This document shows, in pieces, positions 30,669 through 51,829 of a stretch of DNA of 64,000 nucleotides; the first letter of the stretch is position 1, and every line of letters begins with the position of its first letter. The notes beneath the pieces were generated by a model. That model saw only the letters and a list, made by a program, of their open reading frames with translations, ran no database searches and was not told where the DNA came from. A program made the translations under genes and the position numbers. This DNA comes from Escherichia coli (GTDB lineage Bacteria > Pseudomonadota > Gammaproteobacteria > Enterobacterales > Enterobacteriaceae), in assembly GCF_003334355.1 (NCBI RefSeq), contig NZ_QOWP01000007.1; one strand, 5' to 3'.

Positions 30669-31025
30669 ATGAACGCTTATGAACTCCAGGCACTCCGCCA
30701 TATTTTTGCCATGACTATTGATGAATGCGCGACCTGGATTGCCCAGACCGGTGACAGTGAAAGCTGGCGTCAATGGGAAAATGGCAAGTGTGCCATTCCT
30801 GATTGTGTAGTCGAGCAACTGTTGGCTATGCGTCAGCAAAGAAAAAAACATCTTCATGCGATCATAGAGAAAATAAATAACCGCATCGGCAACAACACCA
30901 TGCGTTTTTTCCCCGACTTAACCGCGTTTCAACAAGTCTACCCTGATGGCAATTTTATTGACTGGAAGATCTATCAATCGGTAGCCGCTGAATTATATGC
31001 ACACGATCTGGAGCGGCTTTGTTAA
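30669..31025 (+). CDS. ydiL: YdiL
   Basis: 118-aa product from MNAYELQALRHIF; ORF-track start 30642 is an extension. Confidence 0.7.
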   Translation: MNAYELQALRHIFAMTIDECATWIAQTGDSESWRQWENGKCAIPDCVVEQLLAMRQQRKKHLHAIIEKINNRIGNNTMRFFPDLTAFQQVYPDGNFIDWKIYQSVAAELYAHDLERLC

Positions 31026-34739: not shown

Positions 34740-35498
34740 ATGAAAACCGTAACTGTAAAAGATCTCGTCATTGGTGCGGGCGCACCTAAAATCATCGTCT
34801 CGCTGATGGCGAAAGATATCGCCCGCGTGAAATCCGAAGCTCTCGCCTATCGTGAAGCGGACTTTGATATTCTGGAATGGCGTGTGGACCACTTTGCCGA
34901 CCTCTCCAATGTGGAGTCTGTCATGGCGGCGGCAAAAATTCTCCGTGAAACCATGCCAGAAAAACCGCTGCTGTTTACCTTCCGCAGTGCCAAAGAAGGC
35001 GGCGAGCAGGCGATTTCCACCGAGGCTTATATTGCTCTCAATCGTGCAGCCATCGACAGCGGCCTGGTTGATATGATCGATCTGGAGTTATTTACCGGCG
35101 ATGATCAGGTTAAAGAAACCGTCGCCTACGCCCACGCGCATGATGTGAAAGTTGTCATGTCCAACCATGACTTCCATAAAACGCCGGAAGCCGAAGAAAT
35201 CATTGCCCGTCTGCGCAAAATGCAATCCTTCGACGCCGATATTCCTAAGATTGCGCTGATGCCGCAAAGTACCAGCGATGTGCTGACGTTGCTTGCCGCG
35301 ACCCTGGAGATGCAGGAGCAGTATGCCGATCGTCCAATCATCACGATGTCGATGGCAAAAACTGGCGTAATTTCTCGTCTGGCTGGTGAAGTATTTGGGT
35401 CGGCGGCAACTTTTGGTGCGGTAAAAAAAGCCTCTGCGCCAGGGCAAATCTCGGTAACTGATTTACGCACAGTATTAACTATTTTACATCAGGCATAA
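34740..35498 (+). CDS. aroD: 3-dehydroquinate dehydratase type I
   Basis: 252-aa ORF, recognised. Confidence 0.93.
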
Positions 35499-35642
35499 GC
35501 AATAATATTTCGGCGGGAATATCCTCCCCCGCCGAACTAAAAAAATATATTCAACCGTATTTAATAAAAATATTTCGTGAGTCTCTGTGCGCTAATTATC
35601 CATCTGGCGTAGGGAAAATCACACCTGAATCAGGAATTAACA

Positions 35643-37238
35643 ATGAAACCTGTAAAACCACCTCGTATTAATGGACGAGTGCCGGTCCTGTCGGCACAGG
35701 AAGCGGTGAATTATATTCCCGACGAAGCAACACTTTGTGTGTTAGGCGCTGGCGGCGGTATTCTGGAAGCCACCACGTTAATTACTGCTCTTGCTGATAA
35801 ATATAAACAGACTCAAACGCCACGTAATTTATCGATTATTAGTCCAACAGGGCTTGGCGATCGCGCCGACCGCGGTATTAGTCCGCTGGCGCAAGAAGGT
35901 CTGCTGAAATGGGCATTATGCGGTCACTGGGGACAATCGCCGCGTATTTCTGATCTCGCAGAACAAAATAAAATTATTGCTTATAACTATCCACAAGGTG
36001 TACTTACACAAACCTTACGCGCCGCCGCAGCCCACCAGCCTGGTATTATTAGTGATATTGGCATCGGGACATTTGTCGATCCACGCCAGCAAGGCGGCAA
36101 ACTGAATGAAGTCACTAAAGAAGACCTGATTAAACTGGTCGAGTTTGATAACAAAGAATATCTCTATTACAAAGCGATTGCGCCAGATATCGCCTTCATT
36201 CGCGCTACCACCTGCGACAGCGAAGGCTACGCCACTTTTGAAGATGAGGTGATGTATCTCGACGCATTGGTTATTGCCCAGGCGGTGCACAATAACGGCG
36301 GTATTGTGATGATGCAGGTGCAGAAAATGGTTAAGAAAGCCACGCTGCATCCTAAATCTGTCCGTATTCCGGGTTATCTGGTGGATATTGTGGTGGTCGA
36401 TCCGGATCAAACCCAACTGTATGGCGGTGCACCGGTTAACCGCTTTATTTCTGGTGACTTCACCCTTGATGACAGTACCAAACTTAGCCTGCCCCTAAAC
36501 CAACGTAAATTAGTTGCGCGGCGCGCATTATTCGAAATGCGTAAAGGCGCGGTGGGGAATGTCGGCGTCGGTATTGCTGACGGCATTGGCCTGGTCGCCC
36601 GAGAAGAAGGTTGTGCTGATGACTTTATTCTGACGGTAGAAACAGGTCCGATTGGCGGAATTACTTCACAGGGGATCGCCTTTGGCGCGAACGTGAATAC
36701 CCGTGCCATTCTGGATATGACGTCCCAGTTTGATTTTTATCACGGTGGCGGTCTGGATGTTTGTTATTTGAGTTTTGCTGAAGTCGACCAGCACGGTAAC
36801 GTCGGCGTGCATAAATTCAATGGTAAAATCATGGGCACCGGTGGATTTATTGATATCAGTGCCACTTCGAAGAAAATCATTTTCTGCGGCACATTAACTG
36901 CGGGCAGTTTAAAAACAGAAATTACCGACGGCAAATTAAATATCGTCCAGGAAGGACGGGTGAAGAAATTTATTCGGGAACTACCGGAAATTACTTTCAG
37001 CGGAAAAATCGCTCTCGAGCGAGGGCTGGATGTTCGTTATATCACTGAGCGCGCAGTATTCACGCTGAAAGAAGACGGCCTGCATTTAATCGAAATCGCC
37101 CCTGGCGTCGATTTACAAAAAGATATTCTCGACAAAATGGATTTCACCCCAGTGATTTCGCCAGAACTCAAACTGATGGACGAAAGATTATTTATCGATG
37201 CGGCGATGGGTTTTGTCCTGCCTGAAGCGGCTCATTAA
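35643..37238 (+). CDS. ydiF: Fused alpha/beta-subunit CoA-transferase YdiF
   Basis: 531-aa ORF. Confidence 0.85.
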   Translation: MKPVKPPRINGRVPVLSAQEAVNYIPDEATLCVLGAGGGILEATTLITALADKYKQTQTPRNLSIISPTGLGDRADRGISPLAQEGLLKWALCGHWGQSPRISDLAEQNKIIAYNYPQGVLTQTLRAAAAHQPGIISDIGIGTFVDPRQQGGKLNEVTKEDLIKLVEFDNKEYLYYKAIAPDIAFIRATTCDSEGYATFEDEVMYLDALVIAQAVHNNGGIVMMQVQKMVKKATLHPKSVRIPGYLVDIVVVDPDQTQLYGGAPVNRFISGDFTLDDSTKLSLPLNQRKLVARRALFEMRKGAVGNVGVGIADGIGLVAREEGCADDFILTVETGPIGGITSQGIAFGANVNTRAILDMTSQFDFYHGGGLDVCYLSFAEVDQHGNVGVHKFNGKIMGTGGFIDISATSKKIIFCGTLTAGSLKTEITDGKLNIVQEGRVKKFIRELPEITFSGKIALERGLDVRYITERAVFTLKEDGLHLIEIAPGVDLQKDILDKMDFTPVISPELKLMDERLFIDAAMGFVLPEAAH

Positions 37239-37251
37239 CAGGAGTATAATG

Positions 37252-38403
37252 ATGGATTTTTCTTTAACTGAAGAACAAGAACTGCTGCTGGCCAGTATTC
37301 GCGAACTGATTACGACTAACTTTCCGGAAGAGTATTTCCGCACCTGCGATCAAAACGGGACATATCCGCGTGAGTTTATGCGGGCGCTGGCGGATAACGG
37401 TATTTCCATGCTTGGCGTGCCGGAAGAATTTGGTGGTATCCCTGCGGATTACGTCACCCAAATGCTGGCGCTGATGGAAGTGTCAAAATGCGGTGCTCCG
37501 GCATTTTTAATTACCAACGGTCAATGTATTCACAGTATGCGCCGTTTCGGTTCTGCAGAGCAGCTACGTAAAACGGCAGAAAGCACCCTGGAAACCGGCG
37601 ACCCCGCCTATGCCCTGGCGTTGACGGAACCAGGTGCTGGCTCAGATAACAACAGTGCCACCACCACTTACACGCGTAAAAACGGCAAGGTTTACATCAA
37701 CGGACAGAAAACCTTTATTACCGGTGCGAAAGAGTACCCGTATATGCTGGTGTTGGCGCGCGATCCGCAACCGAAAGATCCCAAAAAAGCCTTCACCCTG
37801 TGGTGGGTCGACTCCAGTAAGCCCGGCATTAAGATTAACCCGCTGCATAAAATCGGCTGACATATGCTCAGCACCTGCGAAGTCTATCTCGACAACGTGG
37901 AAGTTGAAGAGAGCGACATGGTGGGCGAAGAAGGAATGGGTTTCCTCAATGTGATGTACAACTTTGAGATGGAGCGCCTGATCAACGCCGCGCGCAGCAC
38001 CGGCTTTGCCGAATGCGCCTTTGAAGATGCCGCCCGCTATGCCAACCAACGTATCGCTTTTGGTAAGCCCATTGGTCATAACCAGATGATCCAGGAAAAA
38101 CTGGCGCTGATGGCGATTAAGATTGACAACATGCGCAACATGGTGCTGAAAGTGGCATGGCAAGCCGATCAGCATCAGTCACTGCGCACCAGCGCGGCGC
38201 TGGCAAAACTGTATTGCGCACGTACCGCAATGGAAGTCATTGATGATGCGATTCAAATCATGGGCGGTCTGGGCTATACCGATGAAGCGCGCGTCTCCCG
38301 CTTCTGGCGTGATGTCCGTTGTGAACGTATCGGCGGCGGTACAGACGAAATTATGATTTACGTAGCAGGTCGGCAGATCCTGAAAGACTATCAGAACAAA
38401 TAA
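37252..38403 (+). pseudogene. ydiO: Acyl-CoA dehydrogenase YdiO interrupted by in-frame TGA at 37858..37860
   Basis: Two same-frame ORFs (202 aa and 179 aa) separated only by TGA-CAT; together 383 codons, the length of intact ydiO. Confidence 0.7.
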
Positions 38404-38445
38404 TCTGCAGGCGGCGCAGCTTCTTAACAAACTGCGCCGCCAGAT

Positions 38446-39357
38446 TTATCCAACAAGACTTACCGGTTGAGGAAATTCAGATAGGATTTCTTGTTCCGCA
38501 AAACAGTTTTTAAATTGCCTGCGGTAATCGCTGGGTGAACAGCCGACATGGCGCAAAAACAGTTTGCCAAAGTGATCGACATTTTCATAACCCACACGCC
38601 AGGAGATCTCTGCCTGTGATAATTCAGTATTAGTGAGTAACCATTTCGCTTCCGTCATACGCCGTTGAATAACATAGTTAATTGGGGAAATACGATACTC
38701 TTTGGTAAATTCATGGCAAATATAACTGACGCTGGCACGAAATTTTTTCGATAACTGTTCTAAAGTGATTTTTTCGCGATAATTATTATTCAGATAGAAA
38801 AGAATATCTTTTATCAGAACATCTTTTTTAATATACCCCTACTCCGAACGATAAGCATTTTTAAAGTTTTCGTAGTAAAGAATTGCTAATGTATAGGCAA
38901 ATGCATCCCATAACGAAGATGTTTGGCTATTTTTACTTTGCGGCAAAATCACACTTAGCTCATTAAATAAGGTTTTAATGACTTCTTTTCCCTGCCCCGC
39001 GGCAATTACCGGACAAGAATGCGGTTGCAGTAGATGATTTTCCTCAGCCCCCTGAAACTGAAAGCCGTACAGCGCACAGGTACACGTCGTTGCCGGATCG
39101 TTAACGTCAGAGGCCACCGCATGCAGCCTGCCGCGTTCTATCACCACTATATCATCTGCATGCGCGACATATAACGAAGAATCGATGGTAAACCTTGCCA
39201 CCCCTTTCTTGACGTAAATCAGCTCGGTTTCATTGTCATGAACGTGATGTCCAGACTCCCATTTTGGATCATCGCTAAATGCAAAACGTGAAAGCCGTGG
39301 CGTTTTACCAGCGACAAACAGCGTTTCACTGGCATTATCAAAACAGCGTTGATACAT
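38446..39357 (-). pseudogene. ydiP: AraC-family regulator YdiP interrupted by in-frame TAG at 38839..38841
   Basis: N-terminal cupin ORF (172 aa) ends at TAG; the frame continues uninterrupted for 60 codons into the 70-aa C-terminal HTH ORF; total 303 codons. Confidence 0.7.
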
Positions 39358-39672
39358 GACAACCTCCCTATTCCATGAGCAAGCAAAAACAATATATGCC
39401 GGATAAAATACGGCGTGTATTGCGGTTATACAACCGCGTTTAGCGAGAGCTAAACAAGATTATTTACACTGAATGCAAGATTGTACGGTCATGGAATAAC
39501 TATATTGCCGCAAATTGCACTTTTGTTTTAGCGATCGCATTTTTTTTGCAAGATTGTTGGCAAGGAAAACAGCTTGCTCCGTCGAAAACCCCGCACCGCT
39601 ATCGCACACTATTTTCAGGCCATTTTTACCTTCCATCGGAGATGGTTCCGTATGCGACTCACAGGAGAAATC

Positions 39673-40437
39673 ATGAAAATAATAACCTGCTTTAAGCTGG
39701 TGCCTGAAGAACAGGACATTGTTGTCACTCCAGAATACACCCTGAATTTCGACAATGCCGACGCCAAAATCAGCCAGTTCGATCTCAATGCCATTGAAGC
39801 TGCAAGCCAGCTTGCAACAGATGACGATGAGATAGCCGCGCTGACCGTTGGCGGCTCATTGTTGCAGAACTCGAAAGTGCGCAAAGACGTGCTATCCCGC
39901 GGGCCGCACAGCCTGTATATGGTGCAGGATGCACAACTTGAGCATGCACTGCCTCTCGATACCGCAAAAGCGCTGGCGGCAGCAGTTGAAAAGATCGGCT
40001 TCGATTTACTGATCTTTGGTGAAGGTTCCGGCGACCTTTATGCCCAGCAGGTTGGCTTGCTGGTCGGAGAAATTCTGCAACTTCCGGTGATTAATGCAGT
40101 GAGTGCTATTCAGCGTCAGGGCAATACACTGGTGATTGAACGCACGCTTGAAGATGACGTTGAAGTTATTGAACTCTCTGTTCCAGCCGTGCTCTGCGTC
40201 ACCTCCGATATTAACGTGCCACGCATTCCTTCGATGAAAGCCATTCTCGGCGCGGGTAAAAAACCGGTAAATCAGTGGCAGGCAAGTGATATTGGCTGGA
40301 GCCAGAGCGCACCACTTGCTGAACTGACCGGCATTCGCGTACCGCCGCAAACAGAACGTAAGCACATCATTCTCGATAACGATTCGCCGGAGGCCATTGC
40401 CGAGCTGGCGGAACATCTGAAGAAAGCCCTGAACTGA
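39673..40437 (+). CDS. ydiQ: Electron-transfer flavoprotein beta-like subunit YdiQ
   Basis: 254-aa product from MKIITCFKLVPEE; ORF-track start 39574 is an extension. Confidence 0.85.
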   Translation: MKIITCFKLVPEEQDIVVTPEYTLNFDNADAKISQFDLNAIEAASQLATDDDEIAALTVGGSLLQNSKVRKDVLSRGPHSLYMVQDAQLEHALPLDTAKALAAAVEKIGFDLLIFGEGSGDLYAQQVGLLVGEILQLPVINAVSAIQRQGNTLVIERTLEDDVEVIELSVPAVLCVTSDINVPRIPSMKAILGAGKKPVNQWQASDIGWSQSAPLAELTGIRVPPQTERKHIILDNDSPEAIAELAEHLKKALN

Positions 40438-40456
40438 AGCCTACGGAGAAGAAACG

Positions 40457-41395
40457 ATGAGTCAATTAAACAGCGTCTGGGTCTTTAGCGATAATCCTGA
40501 ACGTTATGCTGAACTGTTTGGCGGCGCTCAGCAATGGGGCCAACAGGTGTATGCCATTGTACAAAATACCGACCAGGCGCAGGCAGTTATGCCTTATGGT
40601 CCAAAATGTATTTATGTTCTTGAGCAAAACGACGCGCTGCAACGCACTGAAAATTACGCCGAAAGCATTGCTGCTCTGCTGAAAGATAAACACCCCGCTA
40701 TGTTGCTACTGGCCGCGACGAAACGTGGTAAAGCTCTGGCAGCACGGTTAAGTGTGCAACTGAATGCGGCGCTGGTGAACGATGCCGCGGCGGTGGATAT
40801 TGTCGATGGTCACATTTGCGCCGAACACCGGATGTATGGCGGGTTAGCGTTCGCTCAGGAAAAGATCAACAGCTCGCTGGCGATCATTACCCTTGCACCC
40901 GGTGTTCAGGAACCGTGCGCCAGTGATAACTCTCATCAGTGCCCGACAGAAACGGTACCTTATGTTGCTCCGCGTCATGAAATTCTCTGTCGCGAGCGCC
41001 GTGCGAAAGCGGCAAGCAGCGTGGACCTGAGCAAAGCAAAACGTGTGGTTGGCGTCGGTCGTGGTCTGGCAGCGCAGGATGACCTGAAAATGGTCCACGA
41101 ACTGGCGGCGGTGCTGAATGCTGAAGTCGGCTGTTCACGTCCAATTGCCGAAGGCGAGAACTGGATGGAGCGTGAACGTTATATCGGTGTCTCCGGCGTG
41201 TTGCTGAAATCCGATCTCTACCTGACGCTGGGGATCTCCGGGCAGATCCAACATATGGTTGGCGGCAACGGCGCAAAAGTGATTGTCGCCATCAATAAAG
41301 ATAAAAATGCGCCAATCTTCAACTATGCCGACTACGGTCTGGTGGGCGATATCTACAAAGTCGTCCCTGCCCTGATTAGCCAGTTGAGCCGCTAA
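40457..41395 (+). CDS. ydiR: Electron-transfer flavoprotein alpha-like subunit YdiR
   Basis: 312-aa ORF. Confidence 0.85.
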   Translation: MSQLNSVWVFSDNPERYAELFGGAQQWGQQVYAIVQNTDQAQAVMPYGPKCIYVLEQNDALQRTENYAESIAALLKDKHPAMLLLAATKRGKALAARLSVQLNAALVNDAAAVDIVDGHICAEHRMYGGLAFAQEKINSSLAIITLAPGVQEPCASDNSHQCPTETVPYVAPRHEILCRERRAKAASSVDLSKAKRVVGVGRGLAAQDDLKMVHELAAVLNAEVGCSRPIAEGENWMERERYIGVSGVLLKSDLYLTLGISGQIQHMVGGNGAKVIVAINKDKNAPIFNYADYGLVGDIYKVVPALISQLSR

Positions 41396-41450
41396 TTCCC
41401 CTTTCAACCACATCTCCCGCTGTAAACGCAGCGGGAAGGGAGCATAACGC

Positions 41451-42740
41451 ATGTCGGATGACAAATTTGATGCCATTGTGGTCGGTGCGGGCGTTGCTGG
41501 TAGCGTTGCCGCACTGGTCATGGCACGAGCCGGGCTGGATGTCCTGGTGATAGAACGCGGCGACAGTGCCGGATGTAAAAACATGACCGGCGGGCGCCTT
41601 TATGCCCACACACTTGAAGCAATCATTCCAGGCTTTGCAGCATCAGCGCCGGTAGAACGCAAGGTCACACGCGAGAAAATCTCCTTCTTAACCGAAGAGA
41701 GCGCCGTTACCCTCGATTTTCACCGCGAGCAACCAGATGTTCCGCAACACGCATCTTATACCGTATTGCGTAATCGTCTGGACCCGTGGTTGATGGAACA
41801 TGCCGAGCAGGCGGGCGCACAGTTTATCCCGGGAGTTCGCGTCGATGCGCTGGTTCGTGAAGGAAACAAGGTAACTGGCGTGCAGGCTGGGGATGATATT
41901 CTCGAAGCGAATGTGGTGATTCTGGCTGATGGCGTTAACTCGATGCTTGGCCGCTCGCTGGGAATGGTTCCCGCTTCCGATCCGCATCATTACGCTGTTG
42001 GTGTTAAAGAGGTTATTGGCCTCACACCAGAACAGATCAATGATCGCTTTAATATTACGGGCGAGGAAGGTGCCGCCTGGCTGTTTGCCGGTTCCCCTTC
42101 TGACGGCCTGATGGGTGGCGGATTCCTCTATACCAACAACGATTCCGTATCGTTGGGGCTGGTTTGTGGATTGGGTGATATCACCCATGCGCAAAAAAGC
42201 GTGCCGCAAATGCTGGAAGATTTTAAACAACACCCCGCCATTCGCCCACTAATTAGCGGCGGCAAACTGCTTGAATATTCCGCGCATATGGTGCCAGAAG
42301 GCGGTCTGGCAATGGTGCCGCAGCTGGTTAACGATGGCGTGATGATCGTTGGTGACGCCGCAGGCTTCTGCCTGAATTTGGGTTTTACAGTTCGTGGCAT
42401 GGATTTAGCCATTGCATCGGCTCAGGCTGCCGCCACAACGGTGATCGCCGCCAAAGAACGCGAGGATTTCTCCGCCAGCAGTCTGGCGCAATACAAACGA
42501 GAGCTGGAACAAAGTTGTGTTATGCGCGATATGCAGCATTTTCGCAAGATCCCGGCGCTGATGGAAAACCCGCGCCTGTTTAGCCAATACCCACGAATGG
42601 TAGCCGACATCATGAACGAGATGTTCACCATTGACGGCAAACCAAACCAGCCGGTACGCAAAATGATCATGGGACACGCGAAGAAAATTGGGCTGATCAA
42701 CTTGCTGAAAGATGGCATTAAGGGAGCAACCGCGCTATGA
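41451..42740 (+). CDS. ydiS: ETF-quinone oxidoreductase-like flavoprotein YdiS
   Basis: 429-aa ORF, FAD motif VVGAGVAGS. Confidence 0.85.
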   Translation: MSDDKFDAIVVGAGVAGSVAALVMARAGLDVLVIERGDSAGCKNMTGGRLYAHTLEAIIPGFAASAPVERKVTREKISFLTEESAVTLDFHREQPDVPQHASYTVLRNRLDPWLMEHAEQAGAQFIPGVRVDALVREGNKVTGVQAGDDILEANVVILADGVNSMLGRSLGMVPASDPHHYAVGVKEVIGLTPEQINDRFNITGEEGAAWLFAGSPSDGLMGGGFLYTNNDSVSLGLVCGLGDITHAQKSVPQMLEDFKQHPAIRPLISGGKLLEYSAHMVPEGGLAMVPQLVNDGVMIVGDAAGFCLNLGFTVRGMDLAIASAQAAATTVIAAKEREDFSASSLAQYKRELEQSCVMRDMQHFRKIPALMENPRLFSQYPRMVADIMNEMFTIDGKPNQPVRKMIMGHAKKIGLINLLKDGIKGATAL

Positions 42741-43030
42741 GCCAGAACGCTACGGTTAACGTCGACATCAAATTAGGCGTCAATAAATTCCATGTTGATG
42801 AGGGCCACCCGCATATCATTCTGGCGGAAAATCCCGATATCAATGAATTCCGTAAATTAATGAAAGCCTGCCCTGCCGGACTTTATAAGCAGGATGATGC
42901 AGGAAACATTCATTTTGATTCCGCCGGTTGTCTGGAGTGCGGCACCTGTCGGGTGCTGTGCGGTAACACTATTCTCGAACATTGGCAATATCCCGCAGGC
43001 ACCTTCGGTATTGATTTTCGCTACGGCTAA
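42737..43030 (+). CDS. ydiT: Ferredoxin-like protein YdiT
   Basis: 97-aa ORF, 4-bp overlap with ydiS, Cys cluster CLECGTCRVLC. Confidence 0.85.
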   Translation: MSQNATVNVDIKLGVNKFHVDEGHPHIILAENPDINEFRKLMKACPAGLYKQDDAGNIHFDSAGCLECGTCRVLCGNTILEHWQYPAGTFGIDFRYG

Positions 43031-43086
43031 TCATGCATCCCACAGGCCCGCATCTCGGGCCTGATGTTCTGTTTCGAGAGTCCAAC

Positions 43087-44733
43087 ATGAAAGTGACATT
43101 AACGTTTAACGAACAACGTCGTGCGGCGTATCGTCAGCAAGGGCTATGGGGCGATGCTTCGCTGGCCGATTACTGGCAGCAGACCGCTCGTGCGATGCCA
43201 GACAAAATTGCCGTGGTCGATAATCATGGTGCATCGTACACCTATAGCGCGCTCGATCACGCCGCGAGCTGTCTGGCAAACTGGATGTTGACGAAGGGTA
43301 TTGAATCAGGCGATCGCATCGCATTTCAACTGCCTGGCTGGTGTGAATTTACCGTTATCTATCTTGCCTGCCTGAAAATCGGTGCGGTTTCCGTACCGCT
43401 GTTGCCTTCCTGGCGGGAAGCAGAACTGGTATGGGTACTCAATAAGTGTCAGGCAAAAATGTTCTTTGCACCGACGTTGTTTAAACAAACGCGTCCGGTA
43501 GATTTAATCCTGCCGCTGCAAAATCAGCTTCCACAACTACAACAAATTGTCGGCGTGGACAAACTGACTCCCGCCACCTCTTCCCTCTCATTAAGTCAGA
43601 TTATCGCCGACAATACCTCACTGACCACGGCGATAACGACCCACGGCGATGAATTAGCTGCGGTGCTGTTTACCTCCGGAACCGAGGGTCTGCCAAAGGG
43701 CGTGATGCTTACGCATAACAATATTCTCGCCAGTGAGCGGGCTTATTGCGCGCGGCTGAATCTGACCTGGCAGGATGTCTTTATGATGCCTGCGCCACTC
43801 GGCCACGCAACGGGCTTTCTGCATGGCGTAACAGCACCATTTTTGATTGGTGCTCGCAGCGTGTTGTTAGATATTTTCACTCCTGATGCGTGTCTCGCGC
43901 TGCTTGAGCAGCAGCGTTGCACCTGTATGCTCGGCGCAACGCCGTTTGTCTATGATCTTTTGAATGTACTAGAGAAACAGCCCGCAGACCTTTCAGCGCT
44001 GCGTTTCTTTCTTTGCGGCGGTACCACAATCCCCAAAAAAGTGGCACGTGAATGCCAGCAGCGCGGCATTAAATTATTAAGTGTTTATGGTTCCACAGAA
44101 AGTTCGCCGCATGCGGTGGTGAATCTCGATGATCCTTTGTCGCGCTTTATGCACACCGATGGTTACGCTGCCGCAGGTGTAGAGATTAAAGTGGTCGATG
44201 ACGCACGCAAGACCTTACCGCCAGGTTGTGAAGGTGAAGAAGCCTCGCGTGGCCCCAATGTGTTTATGGGGTATTTTGATGAACCTGAATTAACCGCCCG
44301 TGCGCTGGATGAAGAAGGCTGGTATTACAGCGGCGATCTCTGCCGCATGGATGAGGCTGGCTATATAAAAATTACCGGACGCAAAAAAGATATTATTGTC
44401 CGCGGCGGCGAAAATATTAGCAGCCGTGAAGTAGAAGATATTTTATTGCAGCATCCTAAAATTCACGATGCCTGTGTGGTTGCAATGCCCGATGAACGTT
44501 TAGGTGAACGATCATGCGCTTATGTCGTGCTGAAAGCGCCGCATCATTCATTATCGCTGGAAGAGGTGGTGGCTTTTTTTAGCCGTAAACGGGTCGCAAA
44601 ATATAAATATCCTGAACATATCGTAGTGATCGAAAAACTGCCGCGTACAGCCTCAGGTAAAATACAAAAATTTTTGTTAAGGAAAGATATTATGCGGCGA
44701 TTAACTCAGGATGTCTGTGAAGAGATTGAATAA
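43087..44733 (+). CDS. fadK: Short-chain acyl-CoA synthetase (anaerobic) FadK
   Basis: 548-aa product from MKVTLTFNEQ; AMP-binding motif; ORF-track 43033 start is an extension. Confidence 0.85.
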   Translation: MKVTLTFNEQRRAAYRQQGLWGDASLADYWQQTARAMPDKIAVVDNHGASYTYSALDHAASCLANWMLTKGIESGDRIAFQLPGWCEFTVIYLACLKIGAVSVPLLPSWREAELVWVLNKCQAKMFFAPTLFKQTRPVDLILPLQNQLPQLQQIVGVDKLTPATSSLSLSQIIADNTSLTTAITTHGDELAAVLFTSGTEGLPKGVMLTHNNILASERAYCARLNLTWQDVFMMPAPLGHATGFLHGVTAPFLIGARSVLLDIFTPDACLALLEQQRCTCMLGATPFVYDLLNVLEKQPADLSALRFFLCGGTTIPKKVARECQQRGIKLLSVYGSTESSPHAVVNLDDPLSRFMHTDGYAAAGVEIKVVDDARKTLPPGCEGEEASRGPNVFMGYFDEPELTARALDEEGWYYSGDLCRMDEAGYIKITGRKKDIIVRGGENISSREVEDILLQHPKIHDACVVAMPDERLGERSCAYVVLKAPHHSLSLEEVVAFFSRKRVAKYKYPEHIVVIEKLPRTASGKIQKFLLRKDIMRRLTQDVCEEIE

Positions 44734-49863: not shown

Positions 49864-50517
<654 letters not shown>

Positions 50518-50551
50518 GGGGCACCTTTACCCCACCAACCTGATACCATTA

Positions 50552-51829
50552 TCAGATGGTTGATAGATCGACCCCGTAGTTGAGTTCCTCTGCGAAGTCC
50601 GGCAGTCCGTAACCGATGGTTTTCTTGTAGAACGGAGAGACCTTCGCGGTCGGGGCCTTCTTCTTGTGCTTCGTGGTGTAGAGCATTCGTGCCCGCATCA
50701 CCTCGAAGGAGTAACCACGTCCTTCACGGTTCTTGTCCTTGGCCAGTCGGTTGATGGACTCCGTGTAAGCGTTGGTGACGGGCATGTCCGTCTCGAAGTA
50801 GGTCATGATCTCTTCGCGCCAGTTGCCTACAGCCCTGACCAGATCGCTCCAGACTTCCTTCTGGCCCTTCGGGATGGTGGCTATCCACTCGTCCAGGGCG
50901 GCTTCTGCCTGGGGCCGTGTGGTAGCGTCCCAGATGCCGTAGAAACGTTCCTTGTGCTCGTAGGCGGCCAGCAGTTGTGGGAATGCGCCGGTCCAGGTCT
51001 CCATGATGAGGCGTTCCCGGTTTGAGACTTCGTGAGCGCGTTTCAGCAGGATTTTCCGGTCACCCTTGAGGGTTCGGCTCTGGGAGGGCATCAGCTCCTT
51101 CCTGAGGCCCTTGCGCACCTTCTCCAGGGCATCGTTGGCCATGCGCACCACATGGAACTTATCGACCACGATGCGGGCCTGTGGCAGCACCGCCTTGACC
51201 GCTGCTCGGTAGGGATTCCACATGTCCATGCTGACGATCTTGACCTTCTGCCGGTCTTTCATCTTCATCAGGTAGTTGGTCACCACGTCCTGACGGCGGG
51301 TGGCCAGCAGGTCGAGCAGGGTCCTCTCCTCGATGTTGGTCAGGATGCAGCGGTAGCGCTTGTTCAGGTACAACTCGTCAATGCCGAGAATGCGGGGCGT
51401 CTCGAAGCGGTGCCAGCGCCCCAGGAATTCGGCGCGGGCGTTGAAAATGTCGCGTACCGTCTTCTCGTCCAGGCCCGTGGTATCAGCCACGTAGGCGTAG
51501 GGGTGATTGAAGGCTTCCTTCTCCACGTACTCATGCAACCGCAGCGTCATGCGGAAGCCGTCCACCATCTCCGGTAGCTGGGGCCTGAAGGTGGTCTTGC
51601 AGGCCCGGCAGGTGTACCGGCGACGAACTACCCAGAGGGTGACCCGCTTGCCGTGGATGGGCAGGTCACGATAGGGAACATCACGCTTGCCGAACCGCAC
51701 GAACTCACCCTGCACGCCGCACCCCTCGCAGGCTACTGGTGTAGGAGCTTCAAGCCGAAAATGTATGTCTTCATTCTGCTCATCAGAATCCACCAACTGG
51801 TACCCAGGAAGGCTTAACGAATTAATCAT
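50552..51829 (-). CDS. tnpA: ISL3-family DDE transposase
   Basis: 425-aa ORF; N-terminal zinc ribbon CEGCG...CRAC, overall ISL3 transposase architecture. Confidence 0.88.
   Translation of the reverse strand: MINSLSLPGYQLVDSDEQNEDIHFRLEAPTPVACEGCGVQGEFVRFGKRDVPYRDLPIHGKRVTLWVVRRRYTCRACKTTFRPQLPEMVDGFRMTLRLHEYVEKEAFNHPYAYVADTTGLDEKTVRDIFNARAEFLGRWHRFETPRILGIDELYLNKRYRCILTNIEERTLLDLLATRRQDVVTNYLMKMKDRQKVKIVSMDMWNPYRAAVKAVLPQARIVVDKFHVVRMANDALEKVRKGLRKELMPSQSRTLKGDRKILLKRAHEVSNRERLIMETWTGAFPQLLAAYEHKERFYGIWDATTRPQAEAALDEWIATIPKGQKEVWSDLVRAVGNWREEIMTYFETDMPVTNAYTESINRLAKDKNREGRGYSFEVMRARMLYTTKHKKKAPTAKVSPFYKKTIGYGLPDFAEELNYGVDLSTI

Follow-up and report, generated by a model that had tools for sequence, protein, structure and literature searches.

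An inherited nonsense allele of the AraC-family regulator gene ydiP in Escherichia coli and the probable piecemeal decay of the neighbouring ydi cluster

The window analysed in this study, that is, the whole 64-kb stretch of DNA, is a segment of the Escherichia coli chromosome with punC/cfa towards one end, pheST/infC towards the other, and the suf operon and the ydi genes between them. Within it, the gene for the AraC-family regulator YdiP (38446..39357, minus strand) is interrupted by an in-frame TAG at 38839..38841, and a second stop codon lies about 1 kb away in the adjacent gene ydiO. The locus therefore raises two questions: whether the ydiP stop is a true and inherited loss of function, and whether two broken neighbours say anything about selection on the genes around them. 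The initial annotation had offered two answers to the second question, namely relaxed selection on the pathway in this lineage or an artefact shared by both sites.

The ydiP frame extends on the minus strand from an ATG at 39357 to a TAA at 38446 and comprises 303 codons and a terminal stop, 304 in all. Frame reading, alignment and Pfam assignments agree in describing it as a pseudogene through one internal stop, located at codon 173 in the context NAYRSE-stop-GYIKKDVLIKD, with no frameshift and no indel. The ancestral codon is CAG (Gln), which an alignment places at position 173 in BL21, MG1655 and PSS-12, where the window has TAG; the underlying change is G to A at 38841 on the plus strand. 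The comparison with intact homologues that the initial annotation had suggested thus recovers the original codon, and its description of a single-codon nonsense change in a 303-codon frame that continues unshifted into the helix-turn-helix domain is borne out. The annotated gene is matched at 97.5-100% DNA identity, with the same neighbours, in 5,374 of 5,426 complete E. coli genomes, and the synteny at the locus is the expected one, with ydiO and ydiQ on either side, ydiP being convergent with the former and divergent from the latter. The ydiP sequence of the window is 100% identical over 912 bp to the ydiP pseudogene of FLI21, differs from that of BL21 at the stop site and one other base, and differs from that of PSS-12, the closest complete genome, solely in the stop codon.

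When the stop is repaired, the protein shows both hallmarks of its family, an N-terminal cupin/AraC-type domain and a C-terminal double helix-turn-helix. Pfam places Cupin_2 at residues 30-89 (E 7.6e-11), AraC_binding at residues 28-143 (E 9.4e-10) and HTH_18 at residues 202-281 (E 7.6e-21), the last in the same frame as the cupin part, and the SUPERFAMILY limits published for the DNA-binding part of YdiP are 179-230 and 232-284 (PMC8464067 supplement). Codon 173 falls in the interdomain linker, so that the stop removes all of the DNA-binding domain. What remains at the N-terminal end is a frame of 172 codons (38842..39357, minus strand) that according to the frame list and Pfam holds the cupin / AraC ligand-binding domain only, whereas the orphaned 3' part (38446..38838, minus strand) holds both helix-turn-helix motifs. 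Downstream of the TAG, the nearest in-frame ATG, GTG or TTG would yield only 70 amino acids with a single helix-turn-helix. The canonical product is accordingly predicted from the sequence to be a 172-residue sensor fragment without a helix-turn-helix, which should be unable to bind DNA. A stop thus stands where intact orthologues have a sense codon, and the DNA-binding domain downstream of it is lost, as in a nonsense pseudogene.

The TAG is present in the organism and is not the error of one assembly. Two further assemblies, the Logan assembly of SRR3951466 (L006) and GCA_014464935.1 (L009), match the window at 100% over 10,519 bp, a span that includes the ydiP stop, the ydiO stop and the window-specific fadK A161T; a third, from SRR3823860 (L015), matches at 100% over 6,416 bp, ends in ydiQ and spans both stops only. 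At least three draft or SRA assemblies therefore combine ydiO W203* with the ydiP TAG. The exact 172-residue YdiP fragment occurs on 33 contigs in the public protein collection, where it is deposited as a 'cupin domain-containing protein' (e.g., EEU1999450.1), and the exact 202-residue YdiO fragment occurs on 59 contigs with GenBank accessions. Among complete E. coli genomes, a 41-mer that depends on the TAG matches two of 5,426, FLI21 and 99COLEC, and a 63-mer around the site differs by at least one base in 5,334 of the 5,335 genomes that it matches. NCBI flags ydiP as an 'internal stop' pseudogene in both FLI21 (U0532_RS02175, NZ_CP139808.1) and 99COLEC (JR895_RS23900, NZ_CP070902.1), and in both RefSeq pseudogenes codon 173 has likewise gone from CAG to TAG, on a local haplotype shared with the window. 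A sequencing or assembly error hiding a true CAG in ydiP and TGG in ydiO, as might be suspected from a pair of stops separated by 981 bp within a single assembly and from both changes being G to A on the plus strand, can be dismissed as extremely improbable, given the agreement of three further assemblies (two over 10,519 bp, one over 6,416 bp), the many deposits of both exact truncated proteins, the occurrence of the TAG in two finished RefSeq genomes, and the nature of the changes, which are substitutions outside homopolymers and Dcm/Dam motifs. The artefact half of the original suggestion is thereby refuted. An error caused by a methylation motif or a homopolymer was considered separately and rejected, as direct reading of the sequence context found no homopolymer, Dcm (CCWGG) or Dam (GATC) motif at the ydiP and ydiO stop sites and the other assemblies agree. 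The ydiP TAG is an ordinary nonsense pseudogene, the exact allele of which was already public and flagged by the NCBI pipeline.

Two routes by which a real stop codon might leave function intact were also weighed. Readthrough or recoding, whether by an amber suppressor, a near-cognate tRNA or a programmed signal, would have to leave enough full-length YdiP to work. A near-cognate tRNA-Gln on UAG, or a supE-type suppressor, would give back Gln, and UGA followed by C, as in ydiO, is a known leaky context for tRNA-Trp. However, TAG and TGA differ in kind, so a single suppressor cannot rescue both genes, and the amber suppressor named in the initial annotation as a possible refutation counts for little, given the TGA in ydiO. 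No suppressor tRNA for UAG was found within the 64-kb window, the tRNA genes of which are two tRNA-Val(GAC) only, and a search of positions 35000-41000 for recoding RNA elements (Rfam, including SECIS) gave no match even at E<=1. The ydiP stop is derived and rare (2 of 5,426 genomes) rather than conserved, the ydiO TGA is found in none of the 5,426, and carriers of the TAG gain further hits in the cluster, which is unexpected under retained function. Readthrough is thus very unlikely, and programmed recoding in particular was rejected because the stop is not conserved among orthologues and the Rfam scan was empty.

The second route is a split regulator, in which translation would restart after the TAG, for example at the ATT of codon 176, to give a sensor-free protein consisting of the DNA-binding domain. 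The sequence GGAGTAGGGGTATATT has GGAG, a run of Shine-Dalgarno-like purines, 9 nt before this in-frame ATT, the NCBI annotation of some assemblies calls a 128-residue HTH_18 product from it, and isolated AraC DNA-binding domains can show activity. Nevertheless, E. coli very rarely starts translation at ATT, initiation at the first canonical codon in frame leads to the 70-residue, single-motif product noted above, and the 128-residue call is an output of annotation rather than evidence of expression. The ongoing decay of the cluster in carriers speaks against kept regulation as well, and a working split regulator is considered highly improbable.

The second stop in the window lies in ydiO (37252..38403, plus strand), an acyl-CoA dehydrogenase gene of 383 codons that is a pseudogene via TGG to TGA at codon 203. 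The opal codon occupies 37858..37860 and results from G to A at 37860, which converts Trp203; it is separated from the ydiP stop by 981 bp, in accordance with the initial annotation, which had described a second, independent stop at about this distance. According to the Pfam marks, the truncated YdiO retains the N-terminal and middle domains and loses the C-terminal Acyl-CoA_dh_1 domain. To judge from their sequences, ydiP and ydiO should both be null. Since ydiP is monocistronic, convergent with ydiO and divergent from ydiQ, no polarity on downstream genes is expected from its stop. A 41-mer specific for the ydiO TGA matches none of the 5,426 complete E. coli genomes, and among strains of the window-type haplotype this TGA is private to the sub-lineage of the window.

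Loss of the same ydiO codon is seen on other backgrounds as well. Three haplotypes have TGA at Trp203, namely the window type, a K-12-like one (L017, L019, L020, L023 and L025) and a third represented by L022, and two others, those of L016/L021 and of L024, have TAG. The codon has clearly been made a stop several times independently. One of these strains, L020 (Logan ERR8651211), combines ydiO W203* (TGA) on the K-12-like haplotype with a single-base insertion in ydiP, a +1 frameshift at the equivalent of position ~38780 of the window that leaves a product of 215 amino acids. Most ydiO-null strains keep an intact ydiP. A rule that the regulator is always lost first was therefore discarded, as L017, L019, L023 and L025 share the ydiO TGA with an intact ydiP and only L020 adds the frameshift. 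Both genes are broken in L020 and in the window, and many other strains carry a null ydiO beside a sound ydiP.

The Logan contigs L014, L015 and L020-L025 (~33.66 kb), which come from unrelated samples and haplotypes, all end 582 nt into ydiQ. Probably the assembly graph breaks at this point because ydiQ has a k-mer in common with a paralogue (fixA or ygcR). An IS insertion in ydiQ was considered and set aside, since a repeated k-mer is the better account of one end point on unrelated haplotypes and the window has an unbroken ydiQ.

The relationships among carriers suggest an order of events. PSS-12 differs from the window by 27 SNPs and no small indels over ~61 kb, and its ydiP and ydiO are both intact. 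FLI21 is ~99.1% identical to the window overall, and a near-identical block at ~33-41.4 kb contains the TAG. Related loci were fetched by their carriage of these alleles and inspected over ~5 kb of flank per side, so that the comparison covers hits within these flanks and hits elsewhere are invisible to it. On the window-type haplotype, the ydiP TAG is found in four small branches that are one to four changes apart over a shared 6.4 kb. The branch of the window adds ydiO W203*. The branch of FLI21, L008 and L011 adds one silent change, two intergenic single-base insertions and Q108* (CAA to TAA) in ydiF, a CoA transferase gene (35643..37238, plus strand) that is intact in the window. The branch of L012 and L013 (GCA_038744455.1 and GCA_918382545.1) adds Q152H in ydiO, one silent change in ydiF and a junction with IS1 inside fadK, where homology with the window breaks at 44208, beside an IS1 InsA fragment. 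The fourth branch, L014, adds ydiQ P171S. In the window itself, ydiQ-ydiR-ydiS-ydiT-fadK (39673..44733, plus strand), divergent from ydiP, are all intact, and A161T of fadK is the derived state.

Outside these branches, in L007 and 99COLEC, the immediate surroundings of the TAG are again of the window-type haplotype, set in an otherwise different background. The local haplotype in these mosaics points to one origin followed by recombination rather than repeated mutation, and a recurrent origin of the ydiP TAG is for this reason not supported; the BL21-like L010 is the sole candidate for a possible second origin. Parsimony makes the ydiP stop the earlier event, with the ydiO stop later and private to the sub-lineage of the window. 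The same allele thus occurs in different company: the window combines the ydiP TAG with ydiO W203*, FLI21 combines it with ydiF Q108* and an intact ydiO, and 99COLEC, unlike the window, carries it without a second cluster hit. The attribution of the loss to this lineage alone accordingly needs amendment, as the ydiP TAG is not private but an older allele that sits on one local haplotype in several mosaic backgrounds.

A number of further differences were noted in the same regions. The start of fadK is ambiguous, with 566 amino acids from the ATG at 43033 (frame to 44733) versus 548 amino acids from 43087 in RefSeq, and both lengths occur among the gene calls of related contigs. In PSS-12, an IS1203 element (IS3-family) lies between rprA and ydiL without a counterpart in the window (30691-30695 versus L004 15697-17009), and because of this insertion ydiL is annotated shorter in PSS-12. 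The 50-kb region of FLI21 (L005, NZ_CP139808.1 425000-474999) has a high pseudogene load that includes an internal stop in ydhV, frameshifts in ydiJ and ydiK (as annotated), ydiN::IS1, ydiF Q108* and ydiP Q173*; in addition, IS903B adjoins btuC in FLI21 and is followed by ompN where ihfA-pheT would be expected.

Whether the losses are specific to the cluster was addressed by comparing 56 genes of the window with PSS-12 codon by codon. Three of them are broken, ydiO, ydiP and selO (the last by a transposon), and internal stops occur only in ydiO and ydiP; there are no indels between the window and PSS-12 outside two mobile-element differences. From ydiF to fadK, the two sequences differ by six protein-altering changes (ydiF A208V; ydiO M71I, G90S and W203*; ydiP Q173*; fadK A161T) and no silent change, whereas the other genes of the window show seven protein-altering and nine silent changes. 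This skew of 6:0 versus 7:9 gives p=0.023 in a one-sided Fisher test, which was applied post hoc. Over the longer distance to K-12, omega is 0.04 for ydiP, 0 for ydiO, 0.09 for ydiF and 0.04 for fadK; values of 0-0.09 indicate that these genes are normally conserved in the species and that the stops are recent. As statistical support for relaxation specific to the cluster the skew is thin, and among recent bacterial mutations an excess of protein-altering changes is the general rule. In PSS-12, ydiP is unbroken, and yet ydiF and ydiO together show three amino-acid changes, so relaxation may not depend on the loss of ydiP. Overall, relaxed selection on the ydi cluster in the clade of the window appears to be the best reading of these sequence comparisons, with the skew, the second hits in sister branches and the double loss in L020 lending it modest support; to this extent the suggestion of relaxed selection stands. 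The units ydiF-ydiO, ydiP and ydiQRST-fadK would on this basis behave as a single selective unit. A genome-wide decay of the Shigella type was rejected for the window, in which only ydiO, ydiP and selO are disrupted among the 56 genes, while FLI21 does show wider decay.

The mutational spectrum was polarised for positions 15000-64000. Ten SNPs relative to PSS-12 fall on the side of the window, of which eight are G:C to A:T transitions and two are G:C to T:A transversions, with none from A:T to G:C; on the plus strand, the two stop mutations each read G to A. A change at 60859 was left out of this set, as FLI21 is without that region and the change is therefore unpolarised. The spectrum fits the usual mutational bias.

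The third disrupted gene, selO (ydiU; 49864-54293, minus strand), is split by an ISL3-family transposon of 2,985 bp (50494-53478). The element is bounded by 24-nt terminal inverted repeats that are 83% complementary and is flanked by an 8-bp target duplication, CAAATAAA. Its cargo comprises an ISL3 transposase (425 amino acids), an ArsR/SmtB regulator (108 amino acids) and an SO_0444-like permease of 344 amino acids that scores below the curated cut-off of its family. The insertion is absent at the same site in PSS-12 and FLI21. At >=99% identity, the element is found in 99 records, and overall it occurs in 124 of 5,426 E. coli genomes, with about half of the copies on plasmids.

Selection in favour of the losses is a further possible explanation, in which inactivation of ydiP, and then of the cluster, would have been favoured in a niche and not just tolerated. 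The persistence of the TAG and its arrival in several backgrounds are consistent with such selection, as are the at least four knockouts of the ydiO Trp203 codon, through both TGA and TAG on different haplotypes, and the 6:0 ratio of protein-altering changes in the cluster. The alleles are very rare, however, at two (ydiP) and zero (ydiO) of 5,426 complete genomes, and no sweep-like frequency is seen. A Trp codon can also become a stop through either of two single G-to-A changes, and a query with the exact sequence pools recurrences from a very large collection, so that repeated hits are to be expected without selection. With alleles this rare and a searched collection this large, adaptive loss is not needed to explain the data and is judged quite improbable.

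What is published on YdiP and the surrounding genes bears on how strongly the two losses should be linked. ChIP-exo in K-12 grown in glucose minimal medium identified five YdiP sites, at sdhC, uxaB, secG, cspA and yihQ, and zero sites at the ydi cluster (PMC8464067 supplement). A genetic-interaction study renamed ydiP as csiP and linked it to cold-shock genes (PMC9283627), and the published targets comprise cspA, cspE and a few unrelated promoters (PMC9283627; PMC8464067 supplement). The anaerobic fatty-acid role of ydiQRST-fadK is a proposal for which a review finds no experimental support; a fadK single mutant shows normal growth on fatty acids, and YdiQR has no proven role (PMC9329746). The portrayal of an anaerobic acyl-CoA cluster under a YdiP regulator thus retains the standing of a proposal (PMC9329746), and there is no ChIP-exo site to join YdiP to it (PMC8464067 supplement). 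Putative control of the flanking operons by YdiP derives from the divergent gene arrangement alone. In this respect the locus resembles the AraC-araBAD arrangement, with a cupin sensor followed by two helix-turn-helix motifs and with ydiP divergent from ydiQRST-fadK; it differs in that the published targets of YdiP are cspA, cspE and the few unrelated promoters already mentioned, and control of its neighbours is only putative.

A further alternative is that two unrelated neutral nonsense mutations fell by chance in neighbouring dispensable genes without any link through a pathway. The normal growth of the fadK mutant and the unproven role of YdiQR (PMC9329746), the ChIP-exo result at the cluster and the retention of ydiP in most ydiO-null strains are all in line with such a coincidence. 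Moreover, the cluster makes up ~16% of the coding sequence of the window, so that a second hit would fall there about once in six times. On the other side, the double hit arose twice independently (in the window type and in L020), three distinct second hits are found on the single ydiP-TAG haplotype, and the 6:0 versus 7:9 skew is not what unconnected mutations would lead one to expect. Coincidence is for these reasons considered unlikely.

Combined, these results make it probable, with good confidence, that the window carries a genuine, inherited loss-of-function allele of ydiP that arose once and was followed by piecemeal decay of the cluster. Through one G:C to A:T transition, Gln173 (CAG) became an amber stop, placed in the linker that joins the ligand-binding and DNA-binding domains. 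By parsimony, the TAG was probably born once on a phylogroup-A-type ydiP haplotype and tolerated long enough for descent and recombination to carry the allele into several backgrounds. A later transition from TGG to TGA at Trp203 in the lineage of the window, likewise placed by parsimony, would have deprived YdiO of its C-terminal catalytic domain. With one member of the unit broken, selection on the other members may relax and the cluster decay piece by piece, a step for which support is moderate; the second hits differ among sister branches (ydiO W203*, ydiF Q108* and fadK::IS1), and in the unrelated lineage of L020 the order appears to be reversed, with the ydiO stop first and the ydiP frameshift after.

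The formation of a pseudogene by a point nonsense mutation and the subsequent stepwise decay of a pathway are best documented in Shigella and host-restricted Salmonella. The ydi locus shares with these cases a single-base stop in a conserved gene, independent hits in linked neighbours and a mix of nonsense and IS mutations. It differs from them in that the loss in the window is local, with 3 of 56 checked genes broken, and does not amount to general reduction.

The ydiP pseudogene on its own has little significance. For annotation, the consequence is that ydiP, ydiO and selO of the window genome should be marked as pseudogenes. That ydiP has repeatedly been broken together with ydiO, ydiF or fadK, in independent branches, provides a weak hint from natural genetics that these genes form one functional unit, and the pattern of joint loss could steer experimental work on what the ydi cluster does and how it is regulated. 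A stronger proposal, which is put forward tentatively and is at present doubtful, is that the co-loss is itself a functional signal: YdiP would be the dedicated regulator of ydiF-ydiO and ydiQRST-fadK, such that one loss makes the rest dispensable, or such that loss is favoured in some human-gut lineages. If this were true, the natural null alleles would offer a ready-made genetic test of the set of operons.
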